In this document: piece by piece, positions 1 through 9,060 of the stretch
How the letters are laid out: each line of letters begins with the position of its first letter
Numbering within the stretch: position 1 is the stretch's first letter
Origin: a virus
Taxonomy: Duplodnaviria; Heunggongvirae; Uroviricota; Caudoviricetes
Strand: one strand, 5' to 3'
IMG/VR virus record: IMGVR_UViG_2663763232_000002
Span: 1-9,060 of that record
Length of the DNA: 9,060 bases
Notes under the pieces: model-generated
Seen by the model: the letters and a program-made list of their open reading frames with translations, nothing else
Databases searched by the model: none
What the model was told of the DNA's origin: nothing
Position numbers and translations under genes: made by a program

Positions 1-168
1 TCAGTTGTTACGGGAAGGAATCAGGGTGGCCAGATGTACAGTGGCACGTCTCATGGCGGCTCTTACCCTGCTGGTGCTGTTGCCAGCCCTCATTTCGATG
101 CTGCTCACAGTAGCCTGAACGGTCCGTAGTCGTACCGGGACAACCTCTCTTGCGACATGCGCGAGGGA

Positions 169-402
169 TTAACGCTGGCATGGTTCAATCCTCACGGAAC
201 CGTAGAGCGTATGCCGCTTCACTTCATCGTTCTCTGCCGTCATATAACCACGCTCATCAGGAACGGCTGCGATTACTTCGCCCTTCTCATCGTCAGCAGT
301 GAAGACATGCTTAACTTCAACACCATTGAGATAAACGCTATACCGCTCTTTGCTGAGGTTTATTTTTCTTCCAGGATCATCATCTAAAACGGTTAGTCTC
401 AT
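169..402 (-). CDS. Small hypothetical phage protein (77 aa), function unknown
   Basis: ATG at 402-400 preceded by an AGGGGA Shine-Dalgarno ('AGGGGATAAGA ATG' on the minus strand). Same orientation as the Rha gene upstream. No family recognised from the sequence. Confidence 0.5.
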   Translation of the reverse strand: MRLTVLDDDPGRKINLSKERYSVYLNGVEVKHVFTADDEKGEVIAAVPDERGYMTAENDEVKRHTLYGSVRIEPCQR

Positions 403-490
403 TCTTATCCCCTACTTGGTATATTGATTATCTTATTCGCTTGAAGGGATAACCATTATCAAGCCCACCCGTAGATGGGCTTTGGAATGG

Positions 491-1045
491 TCACTTTGGC
501 AGTCCTGGGATCGATATTTGCGCCTGCTGCTCAAGCCTTTCGATTCTTGCTATGAGTTGCGGTTTTTTGATCCTGCCCCAGCGGTTCAGCAAGCGTCCTG
601 ACATACTGGCAACATCCTTTTCCTTCATGAACTCCAGCATTAACTCGTTGTGCTCTCTTTGGTATGAGTGAGCCATCTCCATCAGCCTGTCACGCATCCA
701 ATTAAATGCTTTGATAAACGCCTCTTTGATGGCGGCAGCTTTTTTGCCGGTAAACGACATGATGATGTACATCGCGCCGTCTTTGGAAATTTCATATTCA
801 ACATACTGATTACCCTTGTGTTCATAGGTAACCCGCGAAAAGTTGCTGGTTAGAAATTCATCCGAACAGTCTAGCTTTTCGATTTTCTGAATGATGTGGT
901 GATGCTGCTTGTCGAAGTAAGCTGCTACCTTGCGGGAGGTTGTGATCACGCGATTACCAGAAACAACCACCATGTCCCGGAAATCGAGATTAGCCAATTG
1001 ATGATTCATAGCGTCTTTACCTTTTAGAAAGTGAGCCTGTCTCAC
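491..1045 (-). CDS. Rha-family phage regulatory protein (antirepressor-like)
   Basis: The N-terminal segment 'VVVSGNRVITTSRKVAAYFDKQHHHIIQKIEKL...YIIMSFTGKKAAAIKEAFIKAF' matches the Phage_pRha signature as I remember it. The ORF-track start at 1045 is a GTG; an in-frame ATG at 1009-1007 with an upstream AAAGG is an alternative start. Confidence 0.7.
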   Translation of the reverse strand: MRQAHFLKGKDAMNHQLANLDFRDMVVVSGNRVITTSRKVAAYFDKQHHHIIQKIEKLDCSDEFLTSNFSRVTYEHKGNQYVEYEISKDGAMYIIMSFTGKKAAAIKEAFIKAFNWMRDRLMEMAHSYQREHNELMLEFMKEKDVASMSGRLLNRWGRIKKPQLIARIERLEQQAQISIPGLPK

Positions 1046-1157
1046 AGAAAAGCCGCCCCGAGATGGTCGCCACCATATACGGCATTTCTCAGGCTCGCTT
1101 ACTGAAAGGCTCGGGTGATGTAATATGCGCGTGAGATGCGCTGTGAAATTCAGATGT

Positions 1158-1181
1158 AAAAAAAGCCCCGCATCGCGAGGC
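1158..1181 (-). terminator. Candidate rho-independent terminator downstream of Rz/Rz1
   Basis: Minus strand reads 5'-GCCTCGC-GAT-GCGGGGC-TTTTTTT-3': a 7-bp GC-rich stem (one G.U pair), 3-nt loop, then a 7-T tract, lying 33 nt past the Rz stop. Confidence 0.45.
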
Positions 1182-1213
1182 TCATTAAATGGACTTTGTG
1201 ATTTGCAAAAGAA

Positions 1214-1681
1214 TTATTTCAGGCATTGCGTCCTGATGTATTCCTGCAGGTAGTTAACCTGCGCGGTTATCTTGTCGATTCCACTTCGGAGACGGTAATA
1301 ATTGAGTTCAGCATCTGCTGTAAGTCTTGGGCTTTCTCCATCGCCCATGCTGCTGGCTCCGGTCGTTGACTTTGCACAGGTGGCGGCGACTTGCAGCCGC
1401 TTACGGCCAGCAATGACATCGCTATGCAGACGCTCAATGGTTTCTTTCGCATCAGCCAGTTCTCCGGTGTATTTGGCATCCAGTGCAGCGACATCACGCT
1501 GGCGGGTCTGCATGTCTTTAATGGTGGCGGTCGCCAGGAGGAGTTTCTCAGTGGCCTTATCGCGCTGGTCTCTGTAAGTGATGGCGTTGTCGCGGTAGTG
1601 GTTCACGAAGAAAGCCAGTGCGCCGATTAACGCCAGCACCAGCAACTGCAGCCAGTAACGCTTAACCAGTGCGCTAATCAT
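1214..1681 (-). CDS. Rz: Spanin, inner-membrane subunit (i-spanin) Rz
   Basis: The 155-aa product has an N-terminal hydrophobic anchor followed by '[11 protein letters not shown]...[19 protein letters not shown]', closely matching lambda Rz. Its ATG overlaps the endolysin stop (ATGA at 1678-1681). Confidence 0.9.
1267..1452 (-). CDS. Rz1: Spanin, outer-membrane lipoprotein subunit (o-spanin) Rz1, embedded in Rz in the +1 frame
   Basis: Internal ATG at 1452 gives a 61-aa product '[33 protein letters not shown]...' with a signal peptide, a lipobox (LAVSG|C) and a proline-rich mature region, as in lambda Rz1. It lies wholly inside Rz. The ORF-track entry 1267..1497 is the same frame with a spurious upstream extension. 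Confidence 0.8.
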
Positions 1682-2127
1682 GACAGGAACAGAGCTCGCT
1701 CTGCCTCCCGCCGACGTGTCAGCCCATTCAGCACCTTCCCACCAGCTTTATTCCAGCGCAGGAACTCATCGGCTGCACCAGCGTAATCTCCGGCGTTGAG
1801 TTTTCGCAGGAGAGTCGATGTCGACAATGACCGCGCACCGAGGTTATACGTGAACGACACCAGGGCATCGAACTGGCCTTGTGTCAGCTTCACCCTGACA
1901 ACTTTCAGCACGTCATTCTCATAACCAACAAGCCCTGTTTTCAGAAGCCTGTCAGCGGTTTGCTGGTCGATAGTCATACCGCGCTTTACTGGCTTTCCGT
2001 CAACCGGATGGGTCCAGCCATAGCCGATGGTCCACGGCGCATCTCCCGTTCCGGGGTCGGGGTAAGCAGTCAGCCGACAACCTTCAAATTTTTTTATCAG
2101 AGCAATTCCGTCAGGACTGGTTTGCAT
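1678..2127 (-). CDS. Endolysin, T4/P22-type lysozyme (GH24 muramidase)
   Basis: Catalytic-region pattern '[22 protein letters not shown]' (Glu, then Asp 8 residues later, then Thr 5 further) and the C-terminal 'FTYNLGA....[19 protein letters not shown]....GL..RR..E' resemble phage 21/P22 lysozymes. There is no N-terminal SAR/TM segment, so it depends on the holin. The ORF-track start at 2154 is TTG; I call the ATG at 2127-2125 with an upstream GGGAG. Confidence 0.85.
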
Positions 2128-2434
2128 CGTCAACTCCCGCCTTTTTTGCTGCAAGTTTTTTAATCAAATTGCCGATCGAATCGGTGCCGATGTATCCAAT
2201 AAAGACGCTGGCTATGTAGGCGAGGTTGCTGCTCAGGCCGATAAAGTCCAGAAGGTCACGAACGAACCAGGCAATCATCGCGCACATCAGCGCATCAATT
2301 AGCGTTTTTGTTACCGCGCCGCCGTTATAGCGACCACGCAGATACGCCATGATAAAAGCCAGCATTGCACCAATACCCTGCTCCTTGGCGGCAAGTAGCG
2401 CAGCAATGAAATCTTGTTTGTATGGCATTTTCAT
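2111..2434 (-). CDS. S: Class I holin, lambda S family, with dual-start motif (holin/antiholin)
   Basis: The 107-aa product '[39 protein letters not shown]...' is near-identical in pattern to lambda S, including the Met1-Lys2-Met3 dual start. A GGAGG Shine-Dalgarno lies 8 nt upstream. The ORF-track extension to 2512 starts at a TTG and is not supported. Confidence 0.9.
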
Positions 2435-2458
2435 AGGCCTCACCTCCGATTTTTCGGA
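2435..2458 (-). promoter_or_regulatory. S translation-initiation region: stem-loop overlapping the Shine-Dalgarno (sdi-like)
   Basis: Minus strand reads 5'-TCCGA-AAAA-TCGGA-GGTGAGGCCT-ATG: a 5-bp stem whose 3' arm overlaps the GGAGG Shine-Dalgarno, directly before the Met-Lys-Met dual start. This is analogous to the lambda S sdi structure that sets the S107:S105 ratio. Confidence 0.4.
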
Positions 2459-2540
2459 TGGCGCTGTGTGTGTATGAAAAGGATCAGGCTTCACTGGCTG
2501 GATTTTCAACAAAGCACGTAGTGATTGATTCCCGTGAGCC

Positions 2541-2567
2541 TGAAATAAAAAACCAGCTCAAGGCTGG
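2541..2567 (-). terminator. Candidate intrinsic terminator between the tRNA pair and S
   Basis: Minus strand reads 5'-CCAGC-CTTGA-GCTGG-TTTTTTATTT-3': a 5-bp stem (4 G:C), 5-nt loop and 6-T tract. The stem is short, so strength is uncertain. Confidence 0.4.
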
Positions 2568-2623
2568 AATGTTAGGGTGTGGCAATGTCAGCTCTGCGGC
2601 TGAAGATACCCTGGCTGGGTTTT

Positions 2624-2699
2624 TGGTGCCGGTTAACGGATTTGAACCGCTACCTATTCACTTACAAGGCGACCGCTCTACCATTGGAGCTAAACCAGC
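2624..2699 (-). tRNA. tRNA-Thr (anticodon UGU), phage-encoded
   Basis: Hand-folded 76-nt cloverleaf on the minus strand: acceptor GCTGGTT/AACCGGC (one G.U), U8, D-arm GCTC-CAATGGTA-GAGC with G18G19, anticodon loop CU-UGU-AA, T-arm AGCGG-TTCAAAT-CCGTT, discriminator A, encoded CCA. Deviations: C where A14 is expected and a G:A at 27:43. Confidence 0.55.
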
Positions 2700-2704
2700 A
2701 TGTT

Positions 2705-2779
2705 TGGCGGGACAGCGTGGACTCGAACCACGATAAGAAGGTTAACAGCCTTCCGTAATGACCTTTATACGACTGACCC
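2705..2779 (-). tRNA. tRNA-Asn (anticodon GUU), phage-encoded
   Basis: Hand-folded 75-nt cloverleaf on the minus strand: anticodon arm GAAGG-CUGUUAA-CCTTC (same loop as E. coli tRNA-Asn), T-arm CGTGG-TTCGAGT-CCACG, 4-nt variable loop, discriminator G, encoded CCA. The acceptor stem GGGTCAG/CTGTCCC has a U4:U69 mismatch and the D-stem has a 13:22 mismatch. It sits 5 nt upstream of the tRNA-Thr. Confidence 0.6.
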
Positions 2780-2783
2780 AAAT

Positions 2784-2825
2784 AAAAAAAGCCACCGTTG
2801 CAACTTAAGAGTCACTAACGGCAGC
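2784..2825 (-). terminator. Candidate tR'-like leader terminator between Q and the tRNAs
   Basis: Minus strand reads 5'-GCTGCCGTT-(17-nt loop AGTGACTCTTAAGTTGC)-AACGGTGGC-TTTTTTTATTT: a 9-bp stem (7 Watson-Crick plus 2 G.U) followed by a 7-T tract. The T tract ends 4 nt before the tRNA-Asn 5' end. Confidence 0.45.
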
Positions 2826-2829
2826 TTAT

Positions 2830-2866
2830 GCGAATAGTGTTGCTCATTTGCTCAATGATGTCAACA
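2830..2866 (-). promoter_or_regulatory. Candidate late promoter pR' / Q-utilisation region
   Basis: A perfect -35 hexamer TTGACA on the minus strand at 2864-2859, seven nt after the Q stop. No convincing -10 at 16-19 bp spacing (AACACT, ACACTA and CACTAT are the options). The position, directly downstream of Q and upstream of a leader terminator, matches lambdoid pR'. Confidence 0.3.
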
Positions 2867-2870
2867 CGTT

Positions 2871-3359
2871 CTATGCTACATGTTTAATTTTCTCTACACG
2901 TTTCCGGTTTTTAAACGCACTATCCAGAACTGGGTAAATCATAAACAACGAAGCATTGAGGATTTCGTCAACTTCCCGGCGACAGGTTGCGAGCGATGGT
3001 TTTTGAATACGCCCGCCGCCCCGGCATAACATCTTGCGAGGTCTTGCGACACGATGATAGTAAGATGCAATGGCATGCTTGGAAGATCCATGAGCGTAGT
3101 AGCTGAGGAGGATGCCAAAGGCTTTCTTGTCAATGCACATGACGGAATCGACGACCTGAGAAATCAACATTCCATCATCATCATTACACATTGGCCTTGT
3201 CATAACTCTTCCCGGCTCTACGCTCTCCATGAACTTCGCTATTACGCTGCTCATGCGCTTTTCCAGACGACCTGAATAAACCCATGCGCCCCACAGTTCA
3301 AGCCAGCCATTCAGCCAATCGTGCTGTTCTTTGGTGAGGTTTAGTTCTCTTATGCTCAT
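2871..3359 (-). CDS. Q: Late-gene antiterminator Q (Q family of E. coli lambdoid prophages, not lambda-Q type by sequence)
   Basis: The 162-aa product 'WLELWGAWVYSGRLEKR...MTRPMCNDDDGML...SYYAHGSS...RRE' matches, from memory, the Q antiterminators of E. coli lambdoid prophages. Position is canonical, between ninH and the lysis cassette. The ATG overlaps the ninH stop (ATGA, 3356-3359). Confidence 0.75.
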   Translation of the reverse strand: MSIRELNLTKEQHDWLNGWLELWGAWVYSGRLEKRMSSVIAKFMESVEPGRVMTRPMCNDDDGMLISQVVDSVMCIDKKAFGILLSYYAHGSSKHAIASYYHRVARPRKMLCRGGGRIQKPSLATCRREVDEILNASLFMIYPVLDSAFKNRKRVEKIKHVA

Positions 3360-3544
3360 CGTCTTCCCCTCTTGCCCTGTTTGACCATCAGGACGCCGTT
3401 AACTATTACGTGACGCTCGCCTTTGCTGTCTCGGTTGTACTTGAGCACTGTTCCTCTTGCGCAGGAAAGCATCCTTGCCACTTCGGTCTGATTGCCTCGT
3501 GTCTGGATAAGAAGCTCTGGTATCGTTTGAATTGTGGCGTTCAT
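3356..3544 (-). CDS. ninH: NinH (small HTH DNA-binding protein)
   Basis: '..TIPELLIQTRGNQTEVARMLSCARGTVLKY..D.KGE.HVIVNGVLMV' aligns with lambda NinH ('KTIPDMLVEAYGNQTEVARRLKCSRGTVRKY...HAIVNDVLMV'). ATGA overlap with rusA at 3541-3544. Confidence 0.85.
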   Translation of the reverse strand: MNATIQTIPELLIQTRGNQTEVARMLSCARGTVLKYNRDSKGERHVIVNGVLMVKQGKRGRR

Positions 3545-3903
3545 ACGTTCTCCAGTTCGGTGATTTTTATTCCAAGCCGTCCGCCTGGTACTTTCACGCC
3601 ACGAATTACGCGAATGTCATCGAATTGCTCGTCGTCTTCCGCAAATCCTGCGTGGATAAGGGAATCGAGTAAACCCTTCAGGATGTTATCGAGGTCGCGG
3701 CGGCGGGAGTCTGGAACGTCTGCGATGACTTTGATGCGGAGTCTTGATTTGGTGAAAATGTCTAACTTGAGTTGGCGGATGATTTGCTGAACGTCTTTTC
3801 GGTATTTCTGGCCTTTATCGCTGATGTAGTATTGGCTTCCCCGTCTTCGCCAGTAGGTGTTCACCGACGGCTGGTAAGGAAGCACAAACTGATATTCGTT
3901 CAT
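3541..3903 (-). CDS. rusA: Holliday-junction resolvase RusA
   Basis: The 120-aa product 'YQFVLPYQPSVNTYWRRRG...IADVPDSRRRDLDNILKGLLDSLIHAGF..DD.Q..D.RV......GGRL.I.ITE' shows the RusA family motifs (catalytic Asp cluster RRRDLDN). ATGA overlap with the upstream gene. Confidence 0.9.
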   Translation of the reverse strand: MNEYQFVLPYQPSVNTYWRRRGSQYYISDKGQKYRKDVQQIIRQLKLDIFTKSRLRIKVIADVPDSRRRDLDNILKGLLDSLIHAGFAEDDEQFDDIRVIRGVKVPGGRLGIKITELENV

Positions 3904-4190
3904 GGCTTAATCTTCCCCTCCTTCAGCAGGATCGCCTGCGTCCTGATCACGCCTTCGAGGTGATAAAGTCTGGCGTCTTTGTTGTCGAGGTTATGGGTGC
4001 GTCGGTCGATCTCCGCGTGGCAGTCACTACAAGCCCATGTGCCGATCAGGTCGGCAGGCTTCATTCCCGTTCCGCAAATTCCAGCCATCCGGTAATGCGC
4101 CAGAACTGTAGTTTCAGGATTACCATTGCATATGCCGTAAATACGTACCTGGCATTCTCTGCCGCGCGCTTCTTTGCGTAGGTTAGCCAT
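3900..4190 (-). CDS. ybcO: YbcO-like DUF1364 protein (putative Zn-binding nuclease)
   Basis: 'MANLRKEARGRECQVRIYGICNGNPETTVLAHYRMAGICGTG.KP.DL....ACSDCHAEIDRRTH' closely matches DLP12 YbcO as I recall it, and sits directly upstream of rusA as in DLP12. Confidence 0.8.
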   Translation of the reverse strand: MANLRKEARGRECQVRIYGICNGNPETTVLAHYRMAGICGTGMKPADLIGTWACSDCHAEIDRRTHNLDNKDARLYHLEGVIRTQAILLKEGKIKP

Positions 4191-4459
4191 TATGGTTCAC
4201 TCCAGTAATTCTCAATTGCAGCAGCCATTCTCTGCATCCACTCAGCCAGCTTTAACGCGGCTTCTCTTTCAGAACCACATTTAGGGAAATCCTTCATTTC
4301 CATGCTGGCCTTATATGTTCTGAATGCCAGGTCTCCGGTAATAACCAGCTCCTGATCAAGCACCGAGCGTTTATTCCGGTGTTGAACGTAATAGACAGAT
4401 TCAGTCCGCATTTCTTCTCTGTCTTTTTTGAAGGAAATAAGCTCAGAGAAATCATTCAT
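4190..4459 (-). CDS. Hypothetical nin-region protein (89 aa)
   Basis: Clean ATG at 4459-4457; an 8-nt start/stop overlap with ninF upstream and a 1-nt overlap with the ybcO-like gene downstream show it is embedded in the translationally coupled operon. No recognisable family. It occupies the slot that ninG/rap holds in lambda. Confidence 0.6.
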   Translation of the reverse strand: MNDFSELISFKKDREEMRTESVYYVQHRNKRSVLDQELVITGDLAFRTYKASMEMKDFPKCGSEREAALKLAEWMQRMAAAIENYWSEP

Positions 4460-4622
4460 CGTCTTCTTCCTCGTACATTGAGCTATTCGGATCGCTCATC
4501 AGTTCTGCGCAGCAATCGGAGCACACGTGAACTTCCAGCACATACAGCTTCTGACCGCAGTTAGCGCACGTTAAAGCCCGCTCGACGCTTTCTTGTTCGT
4601 AACTTCGATTTGGGTCAATCAC
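4452..4622 (-). CDS. ninF: NinF (56 aa), absent from the ORF track because it is under 60 aa
   Basis: Manual translation of the minus strand gives '(V/M)[55 protein letters not shown]', matching lambda NinF ('...[45 protein letters not shown].'). GTG start at 4622-4620 with a GAGGAAAA Shine-Dalgarno 8 nt upstream; GTGA overlap with the ninE stop. Confidence 0.7.
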
Positions 4623-4801
4623 CTTGTTTTCCTCGCACGTTCTCTAAGCCACCGGATATCCCACAGGTGAGCCGTGTAGTTGAAGGTTTTTACGTCAGAT
4701 TCTTTTGGGATTGGCTTGCGTTTATTTCTGGAGCGTTTCGTTGGAAGGTATTTGCAGTTTTCGCAGATGATGTCGGTGATACTTCGTCGCTGTCGTCTCA
4801 T
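4619..4801 (-). CDS. ninE: NinE (60 aa)
   Basis: Internal ATG at 4801-4799 with an AGGAGG Shine-Dalgarno 5 nt upstream gives '[60 protein letters not shown]', matching lambda-type NinE from memory. The ATG overlaps the methyltransferase stop (ATGA, 4798-4801). The ORF-track 90-aa version is a spurious 5' extension. Confidence 0.75.
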
Positions 4802-5343
4802 GCCGCCCTCCTGACGCCCTGCCCGATCGCCATCAATGCCACTTTGGATACGGTAGTAAACATCCGTCGAGGACTGATGAACGGTCGCCAAATCAGCAGC
4901 ATGGAGCCTTTGCTGTTTCCCTTTTTCTCCAGCCCTGTCGATGGTTCGATAAAATTAATCCGTCCATCAGTGATAATACGAACTTCGTCAACACTCTCCA
5001 GAGCCTTGCTGAACCATCCGACTGACATATCCTCTGGCACAAGCATCACTACCGTCTGTCGCTGTTGTATGCACTGCTCAGCGGCTTTTTCCACCCACGG
5101 CCTGATATTGCTGTACGGTGGGTTATTCCAGATTGCACCGTGGCTTATCCACTCAGAATTGAGCGCGTTGTCAGCCTCAGTTAGCCAGTGAGCGCACAGA
5201 GCATTTTTGTCGCTCGCTGCCGAATCCAGCCAGAATCCAAACTCAATATCCAGTGCATCAAAAAGCCAGAGCGGCGTTTGCCAGCAGTCCTTGTCGTGTG
5301 CTGGCGTATTTGATTTGATAGTCATGCAGCCCGATCTCCCCAT
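4798..5343 (-). CDS. Phage DNA N6-adenine methyltransferase (Dam-like, orphan)
   Basis: '[28 protein letters not shown].......L...W....[17 protein letters not shown].......Q.VVMLVP' carries the NPPY catalytic motif IV and matches the phage Dam (PF05869-type) pattern. No cognate restriction gene is adjacent. An alternative ATG at 5325 overlaps the HNH stop as ATGA and may be the true start. Confidence 0.85.
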
Positions 5344-5924
5344 CTCGCTTTCATTTTTTCATTTGCAAATCGCCAGAATCTTCCTTTGTGATATGAGCTT
5401 TCGCCATTACAGCAACGACTAATTGACGAACTATCAAATCCTTCTCTGACAGCATCCATAGCTGCTTCATAATAAACCTCCTCCCCAGTTTTCATGTCAG
5501 TAGAAATAACAGCTTTACTGGCAGGATGGTCACCACTAAATTTACCTAGCGATATAGGTATTCTTCCATTTTGTTTATATCCGTGTTTTGAGTTTTCAGA
5601 ATGTGATACCCATTCAAGGTTATCAGCCCTATTGTCATCTCTTCGCCCATTTTTGTGATTAACTACCAAGCCATCACAGAACCCTGTACAGAATGCTTTC
5701 GCAACTATCCTGTGGGCGCTGTATTTCTTACCGTATACCTTTATTTGAAGATATCCTGTCGACTTGCACTTGAATGGTTTTACACTAGTGCCATTAATTA
5801 TTTTCTTATATGGCCTCTGTCTGGTTGATGTTACTGTAACTTCCCTCGTAATAGACCTAAAATTTCCTTTATTGCTAACCTGATAAAATGGAATCCCTTC
5901 GATATCTACCCAAACCTCAATCAT
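5322..5924 (-). CDS. Free-standing HNH homing endonuclease (NUMOD4 + HNH_3-type)
   Basis: N-terminal NUMOD4-like 'EVWVDIEGIPFYQVSNKGNFRSI'; HNH core 'H-KNG-RRD-DN-RAD-NL-EWVSHSE-N-SK-H'; C-terminal 'F.S...AA...G.....IS.CC.G...S..G..WRF', typical of phage HNH endonuclease DNA-binding tails. GGAGG Shine-Dalgarno before the ATG at 5924. The gene body is markedly AT-rich. Confidence 0.85.
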   Translation of the reverse strand: MIEVWVDIEGIPFYQVSNKGNFRSITREVTVTSTRQRPYKKIINGTSVKPFKCKSTGYLQIKVYGKKYSAHRIVAKAFCTGFCDGLVVNHKNGRRDDNRADNLEWVSHSENSKHGYKQNGRIPISLGKFSGDHPASKAVISTDMKTGEEVYYEAAMDAVREGFDSSSISRCCNGESSYHKGRFWRFANEKMKARWGDRAA

Positions 5925-6333
5925 AATTCCTCCATTCGCTAAGATGAATTGAGTTCATGGCACAATATGCTTCTATGTAGTCCATTATTTCGGATATTTT
6001 TTTTACAGATAGAGTCGCCGTACTCTCTCTGATGTTTATTAGCTCACCTTCTAACCCTGATATAATCTCAGGGTGCTGGTTGGTTGCAATCTGCCAACCA
6101 GAAACGAATAACCCCTTCCAAAACTCAATATTTCTTGCTTTTCCATGATATGTAGCCTTCTTACTTATTTCAGATAGCATCGCGTGAAGGCGTGCATTTT
6201 GCCGAATGCTGCGGTTGCGTTCCTGAATGGTTACTACGATTGGTTTGGTTGGGTCTGGAAGGATTTGCTGTACTGCGTGAATAGCGTTTTGCTGATGTGC
6301 TGGAGATCGAATTTCAAAGGTTAGTTTTTTCAT
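5917..6333 (-). CDS. ninB: NinB (Orf-family recombination mediator), mosaic allele
   Basis: The first ~41 residues, 'MKKLTFEIRSPAHQQNAIHAVQQILPDPTKPIVVTIQERNRS', match lambda NinB as I recall it; the remainder is homologous but divergent. GAGGGAAG Shine-Dalgarno before the ATG at 6333. Confidence 0.85.
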   Translation of the reverse strand: MKKLTFEIRSPAHQQNAIHAVQQILPDPTKPIVVTIQERNRSIRQNARLHAMLSEISKKATYHGKARNIEFWKGLFVSGWQIATNQHPEIISGLEGELINIRESTATLSVKKISEIMDYIEAYCAMNSIHLSEWRNYD

Positions 6334-6526
6334 GACTTCCCTCTCTAACAGATTTCAGGTTATTCCACTCCGTTACCGCACTGCGATAATTCGCGGCCGC
6401 CACAGCAGCGTGGTTAGCGCAGTAGATTTCGCACCCGCTCTCCATGTCAAATATTGTCGGTGATTTTCCGCATTTACATTTTTTGGCACGCGGTGCGTCT
6501 GAACACATTCCGTTAACGGTGTCCAT
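6314..6526 (-). CDS. Small Cys-rich hypothetical protein (70 aa, zinc-ribbon-like)
   Basis: Strong Shine-Dalgarno (GAGGGGGA) before the ATG at 6526. Cysteines are arranged C-x8-CxC...C-x3-C. It is the first gene after the terminator, in the position of ren in lambda. No family recognised. Confidence 0.5.
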   Translation of the reverse strand: MDTVNGMCSDAPRAKKCKCGKSPTIFDMESGCEIYCANHAAVAAANYRSAVTEWNNLKSVREGSHEKTNL

Positions 6527-6550
6527 CAGGATCCCCCTCGTTCTTAATCC

Positions 6551-6581
6551 AATAAAAAAGGGCTACTGTGTAAATAGCCCC
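6551..6581 (-). terminator. Intrinsic terminator downstream of the primase-helicase (tR2-like position)
   Basis: Minus strand reads 5'-GGGCTA-TTTACACAG-TAGCCC-TTTTTTATT-3': a 6-bp stem (7 if the flanking G:C is counted), 9-nt loop and 6-T tract, between the replication gene stop (6612) and the first nin-region gene. Confidence 0.6.
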
Positions 6582-6611
6582 TGTTATTAGCTCAGTGATG
6601 TAGATGGTCAT

Positions 6612-8492
6612 TTAATACTCCGTCACGTTTTCCTGTCGCCACGCCTCGTCATATTCCGATTTCGGCATATTGGCGATGTAGCTATAAGGCGATCCTGATT
6701 CAAGTTGCAGGAACTGGTGCGATTGCTCGTCAAGGAACAAAGGGACGCCACCTTCCCAACCTTCGCCGTTACGTTGCTTTTCAAGCATCAAAACAGATGC
6801 CGGAGATGCCAGTAGCTGTTCGTCCTTCTCTGACATCTTTTCACCACTCTGAACTCTCTGTAACGCTCTCTCGCGAGCCTTGTTACGCCAGATGATGAAA
6901 AGGTTGTCTGTCAGGTCTGTTATCGCTCCAGAGCCTTTTACGTCCATTTTCCCGGTTGGTTTTTCTTCGCTGTCACCTTTTCGCGAGTGAGTAACGAGAA
7001 TGACGTGGGAGTTTGTTTTGTTTTTGAAATCGCAAATCGAGTCAACAAACGCCTTCTGCCCGTTATAGTCATCGTCGCCTATGCCACATTTCATTAGGCT
7101 GTCGATGATGAATAACTGGATCCCGTATCGGCGGCGAGCGTAGTCGAATATTTCGATCAGCCTGTCGGCTTTCGCCGTTCCGGTCAGACCAAACACCCAA
7201 AGTCTTTCGTCATAAAATTTAAATGCAGAGTCAATTTCCAGCACTGGCGGCATCTTGCAGCACGTCGCCTGACGGGTAAGGCGCTTAAGGAGAATACCAG
7301 GCTTCAGCTCAAGTGACGCGATGCACGTCTTCACACCCTGACGCATTGCCTCAAGTGCCATATGCCCGACAACCTCCGTTTTTCCGTGACCGTTCACACC
7401 ATTGACCAGCGTCAACTCGGCCTCACGGAACTGGAATTTATCTGCCAGAGATTCCCACGGTGGATTAAACAGATACTGCTGCTTGCCGTAGAAAGCGTTG
7501 ATAGTGTCCTGGTAAAACTCTCGCGCGCTGTAGAGTTCTTCAGGATCGAAGTAGGATGCCGTGCCGATGTACTGCCAGATTTCATCCTCGGTAACACCGT
7601 TCATCAGGCATTCGTTGATGTCTTTGTACGGCAGAGTAACAAGACGGCAACGATGTTCACCGAGTCGGCTTGCGATTTCCCTTGCGGCTTCACGACCAAC
7701 ATCATCAACGTCCATCGAGATGAATATTTCCTCAAACCTGTCGAGGTTGTGATACTCAAACTCAATCCACTGTTGCTTAGCGCCTTTCCCGCCACCAAAC
7801 GGCACGGATAACGCCGAGATGCCGTATTGCGCATAGCTCATACAATCAATTTCGCCTTCGCAAAGTACAACCGCCCTCACGCCAGCGTCCAGAGCCTGCC
7901 ATCCGAACAGACAAGGTTCGCAATCACCTTCTGCCATAATGACTTTCTTCCCGTCCGGGCGCTCAGTGCTGATTCGCTTGACCTGCAACAACTCACCATC
8001 GCGTTTGTACGGAATCACCAGAGCATCCAGTTCTCGCTCTCCATTCCACACCTTGCCGCTGACAACCTCGTAGCGCTTTACGACTTCTGGCGATATGCCA
8101 CGCGATTGCAGGTACTCAAGATGGGATTCTGTTCTGGTAACGTAGCGGGCGATTTTCTTGCGATCAGGTCTGGAGAATTTCTTCTCACGTTTGGCATCGA
8201 AATGGTGATCGTCATCCTTGATACCGAGAAATGCTTTCGCTTCCTGCATAGCCTGATGCAGGTTAATTCCTCGACATGCCATCCACAAATCAAGCATGTC
8301 ACCGCCGTCCCCCTCAGCGAAATCAGCCCATTTTTTCTTGCCGCTAAGGTTGACCTTAAGGCTGTTTCCCTTGTCACCGTTGACGTTACCGGCAACCCAC
8401 TCATGCCCCTCTTTCTTGCCGTTTGGCAACAGGTGCGGAGCCACCCTGTCAACCTGCGCCCAAAGCAGGTCGCTAAGTTCACTTGGCGTCAT
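6612..8492 (-). CDS. Bifunctional DNA primase-helicase, T7 gp4-like (degenerate zinc-binding-like domain, TOPRIM primase, DnaB-family helicase)
   Basis: TOPRIM motifs 'VVLCEGEIDCMS' and 'ISMDVDDVGREAA', and 'LPYKDINECLMNG' (T7 gp4 has 'LPCKDANECHLNG'). Helicase Walker A 'NGVNGHGKT', Walker B 'LFIIDSL', and 'VKGSGAITDLTDNLFIIWRN' (T7 has '[20 protein letters not shown]'). GAGGGA Shine-Dalgarno before the ATG at 8492. Confidence 0.9.
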   Translation of the reverse strand: MTPSELSDLLWAQVDRVAPHLLPNGKKEGHEWVAGNVNGDKGNSLKVNLSGKKKWADFAEGDGGDMLDLWMACRGINLHQAMQEAKAFLGIKDDDHHFDAKREKKFSRPDRKKIARYVTRTESHLEYLQSRGISPEVVKRYEVVSGKVWNGERELDALVIPYKRDGELLQVKRISTERPDGKKVIMAEGDCEPCLFGWQALDAGVRAVVLCEGEIDCMSYAQYGISALSVPFGGGKGAKQQWIEFEYHNLDRFEEIFISMDVDDVGREAAREIASRLGEHRCRLVTLPYKDINECLMNGVTEDEIWQYIGTASYFDPEELYSAREFYQDTINAFYGKQQYLFNPPWESLADKFQFREAELTLVNGVNGHGKTEVVGHMALEAMRQGVKTCIASLELKPGILLKRLTRQATCCKMPPVLEIDSAFKFYDERLWVFGLTGTAKADRLIEIFDYARRRYGIQLFIIDSLMKCGIGDDDYNGQKAFVDSICDFKNKTNSHVILVTHSRKGDSEEKPTGKMDVKGSGAITDLTDNLFIIWRNKARERALQRVQSGEKMSEKDEQLLASPASVLMLEKQRNGEGWEGGVPLFLDEQSHQFLQLESGSPYSYIANMPKSEYDEAWRQENVTEY

Positions 8493-8542
8493 GATTCCCT
8501 CAGATTGAGATTTTTAAACCAGAAATCGACAAACGAAATACT

Positions 8543-8558
8543 TAACCAGCCGTGGTTA
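8543..8558. promoter_or_regulatory. Inverted repeat TAACCA-GCCG-TGGTTA in the intergenic region upstream of the primase-helicase
   Basis: Six-bp arms that are exact reverse complements, separated by 4 bp, about 50 nt upstream of the primase-helicase start. Flanked by three AACCAG direct repeats (8517, 8544, 8560). Candidate operator or hairpin; no functional evidence. Confidence 0.25.
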
Positions 8559-8599
8559 TAACCAGCGACCAGTAGCGATTTGATTTTTGATTTCATGGT

Positions 8600-8974
8600 T
8601 CACCTGTCGAAAAACACGTAGCCAGTTTTCGATACGGTGATTGCGGATGATGGTTTGGATTGTGGTTGAATAGTTTCTGGCTTCTCGTCGTTCCAGCGTT
8701 GACCGTTCAGGTAGCTCGATGGTAACAACCTGTCGAATCCGAACTGCTTACCATTCCTGCATGCGATGTCTTCTGCCAGCATCGTGGCAAACTCGCTTGC
8801 CGTACCCCTGGTAGTTTTACGCCATTCCCTGAACTGTGTTCTGAATGCCGAAGCTGCGTTTTTCTTCCCGGCTTTCCGCATGCCTGCACACCAGAATATT
8901 TCCTCGAATGCCTTGTCGGTTTCTTCGTGACGGTCAGGAGTTTTTTCACACTCTGTTCGGACATGTTCGAACAT
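8600..8974 (-). CDS. Hypothetical replication-module protein (initiator-like?), probably 5'-truncated by the window edge
   Basis: The 124-aa ORF from ATG 8974 has no Shine-Dalgarno, and the same frame stays open upstream to the window end at 9060, so the real start is likely outside the window. Located immediately upstream of the primase-helicase. No family recognised. Confidence 0.5.
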   Translation of the reverse strand: MFEHVRTECEKTPDRHEETDKAFEEIFWCAGMRKAGKKNAASAFRTQFREWRKTTRGTASEFATMLAEDIACRNGKQFGFDRLLPSSYLNGQRWNDEKPETIQPQSKPSSAITVSKTGYVFFDR

Positions 8975-9021
8975 AATGTTTTTAGGTTCATTGACTGGTT
9001 CAAAAGAGTGATAGGTTCTGG

Positions 9022-9060
9022 GGGCAGCTCCTGCCCCACCCCCTAGGGCAGCTCCTGCCC
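9022..9060. repeat. Tandem palindromic iteron-like repeats (candidate replication origin or operator array), truncated by the window end
   Basis: The 15-bp unit GGGCAGCTCCTGCCC (arms GGGCAG/CTGCCC, 3-bp centre) occurs at 9022-9036 and 9046-9060 with a 24-bp period. The window ends inside the array. Confidence 0.5.

Follow-up and report, generated by a model that had tools for sequence, protein, structure and literature searches.

A probable free-standing homing endonuclease cassette beside an independent orphan Dam methyltransferase gene in the nin region of a lambdoid prophage

Introduction

When an endonuclease gene and a DNA methyltransferase gene lie side by side and share the bases of a stop and a start codon, it must be asked whether their products work as a unit or are simply neighbors. 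Such a pair is found in the window studied here, a 9,060-nt stretch of tailed phage DNA (positions 1 to 9,060 of IMG/VR record IMGVR_UViG_2663763232_000002). The pair resembles a Type II restriction-modification system in having a nuclease gene beside an N6-adenine methyltransferase gene in one operon, and the original prediction read it as a minimal restriction-modification or selfish nuclease/protector unit, with two independent functions (homing and methylation of phage DNA) as a fallback. The ATGA overlap at 5322-5325, the gene identities and the coordinates given in that prediction were confirmed by reading the sequence and by Pfam and TIGR matches (Table 1). We consider it likely, with a probability of about 0.78, that the locus combines a free-standing homing endonuclease cassette that lacks a promoter of its own with an orphan GATC methyltransferase gene that is independent of it.

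Table 1. Features of the nin region in the window, listed in the direction of the operon.
Feature	Position	Strand	Basis
Primase/helicase	6612-8492	-	
orf70	6314-6526	-	
NinB, chimeric NinB/Orf recombination mediator, 138 aa	5917-6333	-	Pfam NinB 1.2e-40
AT-rich replacement cassette, 855 nt	5353-6207	-	Homology breaks vs mEp043
HNH translation start (GGAGG 5929-5933, ATG 5922-5924)	5917-5933	-	Read from sequence
NUMOD4-HNH endonuclease ORF, 200 aa	5322-5924 (5924→5322)	-	Pfam NUMOD4 1.4e-13, HNH_3 2.4e-11
Retained 3' tail of ancestral λ-type ninB, 31 nt	5322-5352	-	Alignment with 434 and mEp043 junctions
Dam, phage orphan N6-adenine methyltransferase of the M.EcoVT2Dam type, 175 aa	4798-5325	-	Pfam Dam 6.3e-65
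Second ATGA overlap, Dam stop/NinE start	4798-4801	-	
NinE	4619-4801	-	
NinF	4452-4622	-	
orf89	4190-4459	-	
YbcO	3900-4190	-	
RusA	3541-3903	-	
NinH-like	3356-3544	-	
Q	2871-3359	-	

Results and Discussion

Operon structure and the ATGA junction

The genes of this region all lie on the minus strand in a lambdoid ninR-type operon, and Q is followed by two tRNAs and then by the lysis genes. The HNH stop codon (5322-5324) and the Dam ATG (5323-5325) together form ATGA, which reads TCAT on the plus strand. From orf70 to Q, each of the 10 gene junctions is an overlap, and six of the 10 are 4-nt [A/G]TGA overlaps; because Dam and NinE are also joined by ATGA, this junction type is generic. ATGA overlaps are typical of the nin regions of all lambdoid phages (PMC8022706). 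The HNH/Dam ATGA is a standard junction of the operon and is not distinctive. Judging from the ATGA overlap, translation of Dam may be coupled to that of HNH.

Between 4500 and 6700, sites resembling promoters or terminators were no more frequent than expected by chance, and no terminator-like site was found between ninB and NinE. The sole terminator-like hairpin, at 6558-6582, lies upstream of orf70. As internal promoter and terminator counts were no higher than chance, HNH or Dam as separate transcription units was rejected.

The translation start of HNH (Table 1) is embedded in the end of ninB, and the two ORFs overlap by the 8 nt ATGATTGA, from the HNH ATG to the ninB stop codon (5917-5919). 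The identical 8-nt overlap is present in relatives from Yersinia and Klebsiella. Some T4 endonuclease genes have ribosome-binding sites hidden in a hairpin; an RNA hairpin masking the HNH ribosome-binding site was rejected here, as the fold of 5895-5990 (z=0.94) was no better than those of shuffled sequences.

The Dam methyltransferase

The methyltransferase matches Pfam PF05869 (218.4 bits, 6.3e-65, cutoff 28.1) and the TIGR01712 equivalog model (263.3 bits, 6.2e-79, cutoff 97.05), and its catalytic (D/N)PPY motif is present as NPPY at residues 68-71 (window 5113-5124). An alternative in-frame ATG at 5343 (5341-5343) would give a 181-aa protein and a 22-nt overlap with HNH, and this is the RefSeq start for Dam of phage mEp043. 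Pfam Dam aligns from residue 4 and TIGR01712 from residue 2 of the 175-aa form, and the family models together with most records support 5325 as the probable start.

Dam of the window is identical at 172 of 175 residues (98%) to M.EcoVT2Dam of the Stx2 phage VT2-Sakai, an orphan methyltransferase reported to target GATC (PMC6602927, citing Radlinska & Bujnicki 2001). From this identity, the window enzyme is predicted to be specific for GATC. The two genes also share their setting, after ninB and before ninE with the same ATGA start context; they differ in that ninB lies directly upstream of M.EcoVT2Dam, whereas the HNH cassette occupies that place in the window. The Dam enzyme of the E. coli host already methylates GATC on all DNA. 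Because host Dam places the same mark, the phage enzyme could not tell self from non-self, which argues against a role of this methylation in restriction-modification. The phage Dam would probably serve to keep fast-replicating phage DNA GATC-methylated.

The HNH endonuclease

The nuclease most resembles I-HmuI, the intron-encoded nicking HNH homing endonuclease of Bacillus phage SPO1, which was its only match in the PDB (1U3E, E=3.7e-14, residues 55-186). Both proteins have an HNH core in which the His and Asn residues are conserved, and a NUMOD-like DNA-binding region at the C-terminus; the model of the I-HmuI NUMOD-like domain scores 19.2 bits, under its cutoff of 27, and the PDB alignment reaches residue 186. 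They are about 30% identical, and the window gene is free-standing, not intron-encoded. The motif residues H90 (5655-5657), N102 (5619-5621) and N111 (5592-5594) align with H75, N87 and N96 of I-HmuI and are conserved in 115 to 116 of 116 relatives. The window protein differs from I-HmuI by an N-terminal NUMOD4 module (51.3 bits, cutoff 23.4) and by Asn89 at the position of the metal ligand Asp74. Asn occurs here in 91 of the 116 relatives and is the norm of the subfamily; its replacement of an I-HmuI ligand is nonetheless a counterpoint to homing.

Relatives recovered by tblastn are annotated as HNH or homing endonucleases and come mostly from phages of Gram-positive hosts. With PADLOC, HNH matched only the homing endonuclease model ('HEase', 1.1e-26), and the best match of Dam was 'orphan methyltransferase' (9.1e-20), with Type II MTase at 9.2e-08. 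These models place the proteins as a homing-type HNH and an orphan-type Dam, and a restriction-modification component was the best match of neither, a further point against such a pair. An HK97-type packaging HNH was ruled out by the NUMOD4/I-HmuI-like architecture and by the distance from the terminase genes.

In 281 member sequences the ORF is uninterrupted and keeps its catalytic motif, and dN is low for relatives that are 65-79% identical. Between the window HNH and its copy in Salmonella phage SEN22, dN is 0.145; dN alone is given, as saturation of synonymous sites makes dN/dS not computable. The adjacent NinB has a dN/dS of 0.067 relative to its SEN22 copy, and the two values together indicate that both genes are under purifying selection. 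In some prophages HNH is disrupted by an IS5-family element, from which it follows that the gene is dispensable to the prophage, and some copies may be undergoing decay. The literature searched yielded no report that this HNH protein cleaves or nicks DNA or is inherited with a bias. Its endonuclease activity and its ninB target are predictions from sequence.

Distribution of Dam and HNH

The restriction-modification reading holds that HNH and Dam are joined through the ATGA and that methylation protects the carrier. The overlap does exist, and about 62 phage records and 62 E. coli genomes have the two genes next to each other in the same orientation. They are not, however, inherited together. 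Among phage records, Dam (≥97% nucleotide identity) is present in 244 and HNH in 63, and about 180 of the 244 with Dam are without HNH. In bacterial genomes, HNH plus 300 nt of Dam was used as the query against 5,426 complete E. coli genomes, of which 1,571 matched. HNH followed by Dam is found in 62 of these; nearly all other matches cover query positions 1 to 327 or 330, that is, the 5' end of Dam with 27 to 30 nt upstream, at loci annotated as NinB followed by Dam. About 1,500 of the 1,571 Dam-context genomes are without HNH.

The sequence context of Dam is the same where HNH is missing. In phages 434 and mEp043, a 146-aa NinB ends in ...KARWGDRAA* and runs onto Dam by an identical overlap, GGGCTGCATGA. 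The ninB of VT2-Sakai is a third allele, which shares the last 11 nt and the GGGCTGCATGA overlap onto Dam. By the original prediction, a functional unit would be contradicted by related phages that have the methyltransferase in this place, lack the endonuclease and keep an identical start context, and this is the arrangement that these phages have.

HNH likewise occurs without Dam. In 28 IMG/VR loci with an HNH of 97-100% amino acid identity, the gene that follows is Dam in 19, NinE in six, NinD in one and NinC in one; in the remaining locus another HNH gene comes next and then Dam. The following gene begins at ATGA in 28 of 28. NinC also lies downstream of HNH in phage APC_JM3.2, and NinD downstream of a 79% identical (amino acid) relative in SEN22. 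More distant HNH relatives (52-66% identity) are found in nin regions of Klebsiella, Yersinia, Pseudomonas and one metagenome lineage, and in none of these does a methyltransferase adjoin HNH. A scan for the HNH peptide pattern in one genome per species gave 75 pattern matches and no confirmed relatives.

The GATC site in the window junction, at 5333, could link the endonuclease to Dam, but this was rejected as several junctions between HNH and other genes are without GATC. The pair is thus unlike a Type II system in having no conserved linkage, a homing-type nuclease, an orphan Dam and a mark that is also the host's. HNH is almost certainly independent of Dam, and the two independent functions that the original prediction kept as its fallback are what the evidence supports.

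The cassette and its borrowed ninB tail

The boundaries of the HNH insertion are given by comparison with phage mEp043, which lacks HNH. Its flanks are 98-100% identical to those of the window, with sharp breaks at 5352/5353 and 6207/6208. Between the breaks, the cassette in the window stands in place of 284 nt of λ-type ninB and consists of a divergent 3' part of ninB (codons 43-138) and HNH codons 1-191. The GC content is 38.8% in the cassette, 51.1% in the ninB segment that it displaced and 49.8% elsewhere in the window. The window and mEp043 show a presence/absence polymorphism at one precise site in homologous genomes.

The resulting NinB is a chimera, with residues 1-42 identical to λ-type NinB and the remainder identical at 24 of 109 positions (22%). 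It matches PF05772 over its full length (138.8 bits, model positions 2-129 of 131) and PHROG 72 at 3.6e-43.

At the other end, HNH is completed by the retained ninB tail (Table 1), which encodes the C-terminus KARWGDRAA, the last nine codons of ninB. This tail also holds the alternative ATG at 5341-5343, an SD-like GGAG (5336-5339), the GATC (5333-5336) and the ATGA. Since the ATGA and the preceding 27 nt are the ancestral 3' end of ninB, the overlap on which the restriction-modification reading was built came from ninB and is older than HNH. Among 116 aligned relatives, the KARWGDRAA tail is restricted to the E. coli HNH cluster, and other relatives end in ...ERMAA or similar (...FADERMAA in SEN22 and in locus L032). 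As the right joint lies inside the ninB tail, HNH inherits the old stop codon, the GGAG and the ATGA of the next gene; as the 31 nt keep the GGAG and both Dam start codons, the downstream translation signals are left intact. Two other loci, L086 and L118, have this ninB tail attached, at an identical position, to unrelated DNA.

Signs of mobility

The divergent ninB segment occurs only where HNH does, in 63 of 63 records (≥99% identity) and also in SEN22 (80%). Cassette identity is 98-100% between loci that have ninB 5' ends of 81 to 100% identity and unrelated upstream DNA, and its hosts span different phage genera (Traversvirus, Lederbergvirus and others). As a counterpoint to homing, the strict linkage of the ninB segment to HNH could reflect a single ordinary import followed by general mosaic exchange.

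Variants in the 3' half of the ninB tail track the downstream gene and not HNH. The NinE-type tail variant, for example, is carried by 98 IMG/VR contigs without HNH and by four with it. This tracking points to separate entries into recipients that had different genes after ninB. In total the cassette occurs in at least four downstream contexts, in each with the recipient's own tail variant.

A model of intronless homing into ninB

On this reading, the ninR (early right) operon of a lambdoid prophage contains two accessory genes that are neighbors and otherwise unrelated. We propose that an I-HmuI-like NUMOD4-HNH gene and a divergent segment substituting for the 3' two-thirds of ninB travel together, and that this cassette recombined into a λ-type ninB, with the left joint in the conserved 5' block of ninB and the right joint 27 nt before its stop codon. 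Most likely, the enzyme would nick or cut the λ-type ninB of other lambdoid phages that infect or reside in the same cell; the cassette would then be copied in by recombinational repair, while the divergent ninB segment would shield the carrier from its own enzyme. This would be intronless homing, as for the seg and mob genes of T4. HNH would share the transcript of the operon and rely on a GGAGG of its own (5929-5933) for translation, and Dam would already have been coupled to ninB through the same ATGA before the cassette arrived. Active homing into ninB, as one part of this reading, is favored only slightly over its absence.

Free-standing endonucleases often take the form of cassettes that have no promoter and bring about co-conversion of the DNA around them (PMC2988022). 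The T4 mobA/mobE and seg genes resemble the window cassette in being promoter-less, in lying within a polycistronic operon between or at the ends of conserved genes, in their presence or absence among close relatives and in the divergent neighboring segment that travels along (PMC2988022). The window cassette is unlike the T4 genes in residing in temperate lambdoid phages and in being fused in frame to the tail of the gene that it splits, and its homing is presumed by analogy. What it offers is a clean and testable case of a free-standing homing cassette in temperate lambdoid phages, with exact boundaries, a near-isogenic empty site in mEp043 and a borrowed tail. If HNH is active, it would provide a concrete mechanism for some of the mosaicism of nin regions, including those of Shiga-toxin phages.

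The gene order itself is not new. Stx2 phage 86 (orf72-orf73-dam), P27 and Lahn2 (ORF138/ORF200) have the same order of a 138-aa NinB, HNH and Dam, with a cassette of 99.7% nucleotide identity, and existing annotation labels the two downstream genes HNH endonuclease and DNA methyltransferase. Their backbone is Stx podophage-like, whereas the window has a primase/helicase replication module, and the ninB 5' ends are only 85.5% identical. HNH genes near orf are also drawn on a published nin-region gene map (PMC4118853). Beyond this map, the literature searched on nin regions and Stx phages yielded no description of HNH as a homing cassette or of the borrowed ninB tail. The NinB-HNH-Dam arrangement is common, already deposited and annotated, and is very probably not a functional unit.

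Alternative explanations

The best of the alternatives to a homing cassette, though an unlikely one, is that HNH is a domesticated partner of the Orf/NinB mediator, acting as a site- or structure-specific nickase that starts recombination or replication restart. The HNH family is always found behind an Orf-family gene or a gene at the same position, with the same 8-nt overlap, across genera: NinB in E. coli, Salmonella and Yersinia, YbcN/PRK09741 in Klebsiella and DUF1367 in loci L032 and L033. The purifying selection on HNH and NinB would also fit a partnership. Most lambdoid phages, however, have NinB without HNH, and IS-disrupted copies of HNH persist; the patchy distribution, the AT-rich foreign composition and the near-identity in otherwise unrelated backbones typify a mobile element. 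That the family is always placed after Orf-family genes could point to cooperation, a counterpoint to pure selfishness.

Less probable still is that HNH is an inactive passenger, which entered once by illegitimate or homeologous recombination and was then spread by lambdoid mosaic exchange. Joints at gene ends and in short conserved blocks are typical of lambdoid mosaicism, and the unrelated DNA on the ninB tail in L086 and L118 is of the same kind. Against a passenger, the ORF and its catalytic motif have been kept intact in the 281 sequences, dN is low for the 65-79% relatives, conservation of the cassette exceeds that of its flanks in several phage genera, and the cassette has been placed in several downstream contexts with the recipient's tail variant kept in each. 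The restriction-modification or nuclease/protector unit is the weakest of the alternatives and, given the separate inheritance of the two genes, the occurrence of HNH before NinE, NinD or NinC, the ninB origin of the ATGA and the host's identical mark, can be set aside as highly improbable.

Beyond the homing cassette itself, it is a speculative and rather doubtful idea that the NUMOD4-HNH family is a long-standing partner of Orf mediators in lambdoid prophages of several genera and, together with other HNH families, could drive replacement of ninB alleles. If it were true, much of the mosaicism of nin regions would be made by endonuclease-initiated gene conversion, not by random illegitimate recombination, with ATGA coupling kept. 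At least two other HNH families also take over gene ends in frame, one at ninB codon 32 (L029) and one at dam codon 9 (L030).

Endonuclease genes capturing ninB and Dam coding sequence

In the IMG/VR locus L029, the first ~32 codons of ninB are fused in frame to a second endonuclease (HNH_3 + AP2) that differs from the usual NUMOD4-HNH one. After this fusion comes a ninB whose N-terminus is recoded, and the usual HNH gene comes next; therefore, one ninB nests two endonuclease genes. A second IMG/VR locus, L030, encodes an HNH_3 endonuclease 34% identical to that of L029. Its ORF begins at the ATGA with the nine opening codons of Dam itself (MTIKSNTPA), and Dam, located 3' of this ORF via another ATGA, has a new N-terminus (MIKHKSETPKEVRDCWQTP...). 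This capture of the Dam 5' codons is the mirror image of the capture of the ninB tail by the HNH gene of the window. The annotated Dam start differs among public records: the gene is 528 nt long in the entries for phages 434 and Stx2-86 but 546 nt long in that for mEp043. Both candidate ATG codons (window 5325 and 5343) fall within the retained ninB tail.

In two further IMG/VR loci, L086 and L118, unrelated DNA adjoining an IS3-family element meets the ninB tail precisely where the HNH cassette does, to the nucleotide (...GGCATG/AAAGCGCGATGGGGAGA, with the slash marking the joint). Recombination may therefore have recurred at this position, which lies 27 nt ahead of the stop codon of ninB. 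The HNH gene is itself interrupted in some Stx2a prophages by an IS5-family transposase insertion at codon 46/47.

HNH relatives in other hosts

In HNH relatives from Klebsiella, Yersinia and other hosts (loci L143, L148, L145, L032, L033 and L147), the preceding gene was always an Orf-family or same-position gene, encoding YbcN/PRK09741, NinB or DUF1367, and it overlapped the HNH gene by 8 nt in L143, L145 and L148. The gene upstream of the Pseudomonas relative is a 112-aa ORF without a family assignment.

Other features of the window

The position of the two tRNA genes is also where tRNAs and toxin genes sit in Stx phages. A 234-nt segment (window 6346-6579) replaces 33 nt of mEp043 and holds most of orf70, which is cysteine-rich (PHROG 6308), and a terminator-like hairpin at 6558-6582. 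The YbcO-family protein, whose homologues in mEp043 and SEN22 are labelled "HNH endonuclease" in RefSeq, is a second candidate nuclease in the HNH/Dam operon.

Locations of the compared loci and additional window features
Feature	Location	Strand	Record or remark
HNH_3 + AP2 endonuclease, 195 aa	L029:2015-3008		IMG/VR contig 2751185961_000005; differs from usual NUMOD4-HNH
HNH_3 endonuclease ORF and Dam	L030:3600-4654		IMG/VR contig 2703719355_000002
IS5-split HNH gene	L031:1800-3000		Also phage records LC616041.1, LC616042.1
tRNA-Thr (TGT) and tRNA-Asn (GTT)	Window 2624-2779	-	Between Q antiterminator and holin genes
YbcO-family putative nuclease, 96 aa	Window 3900-4190	-	Directly upstream of RusA
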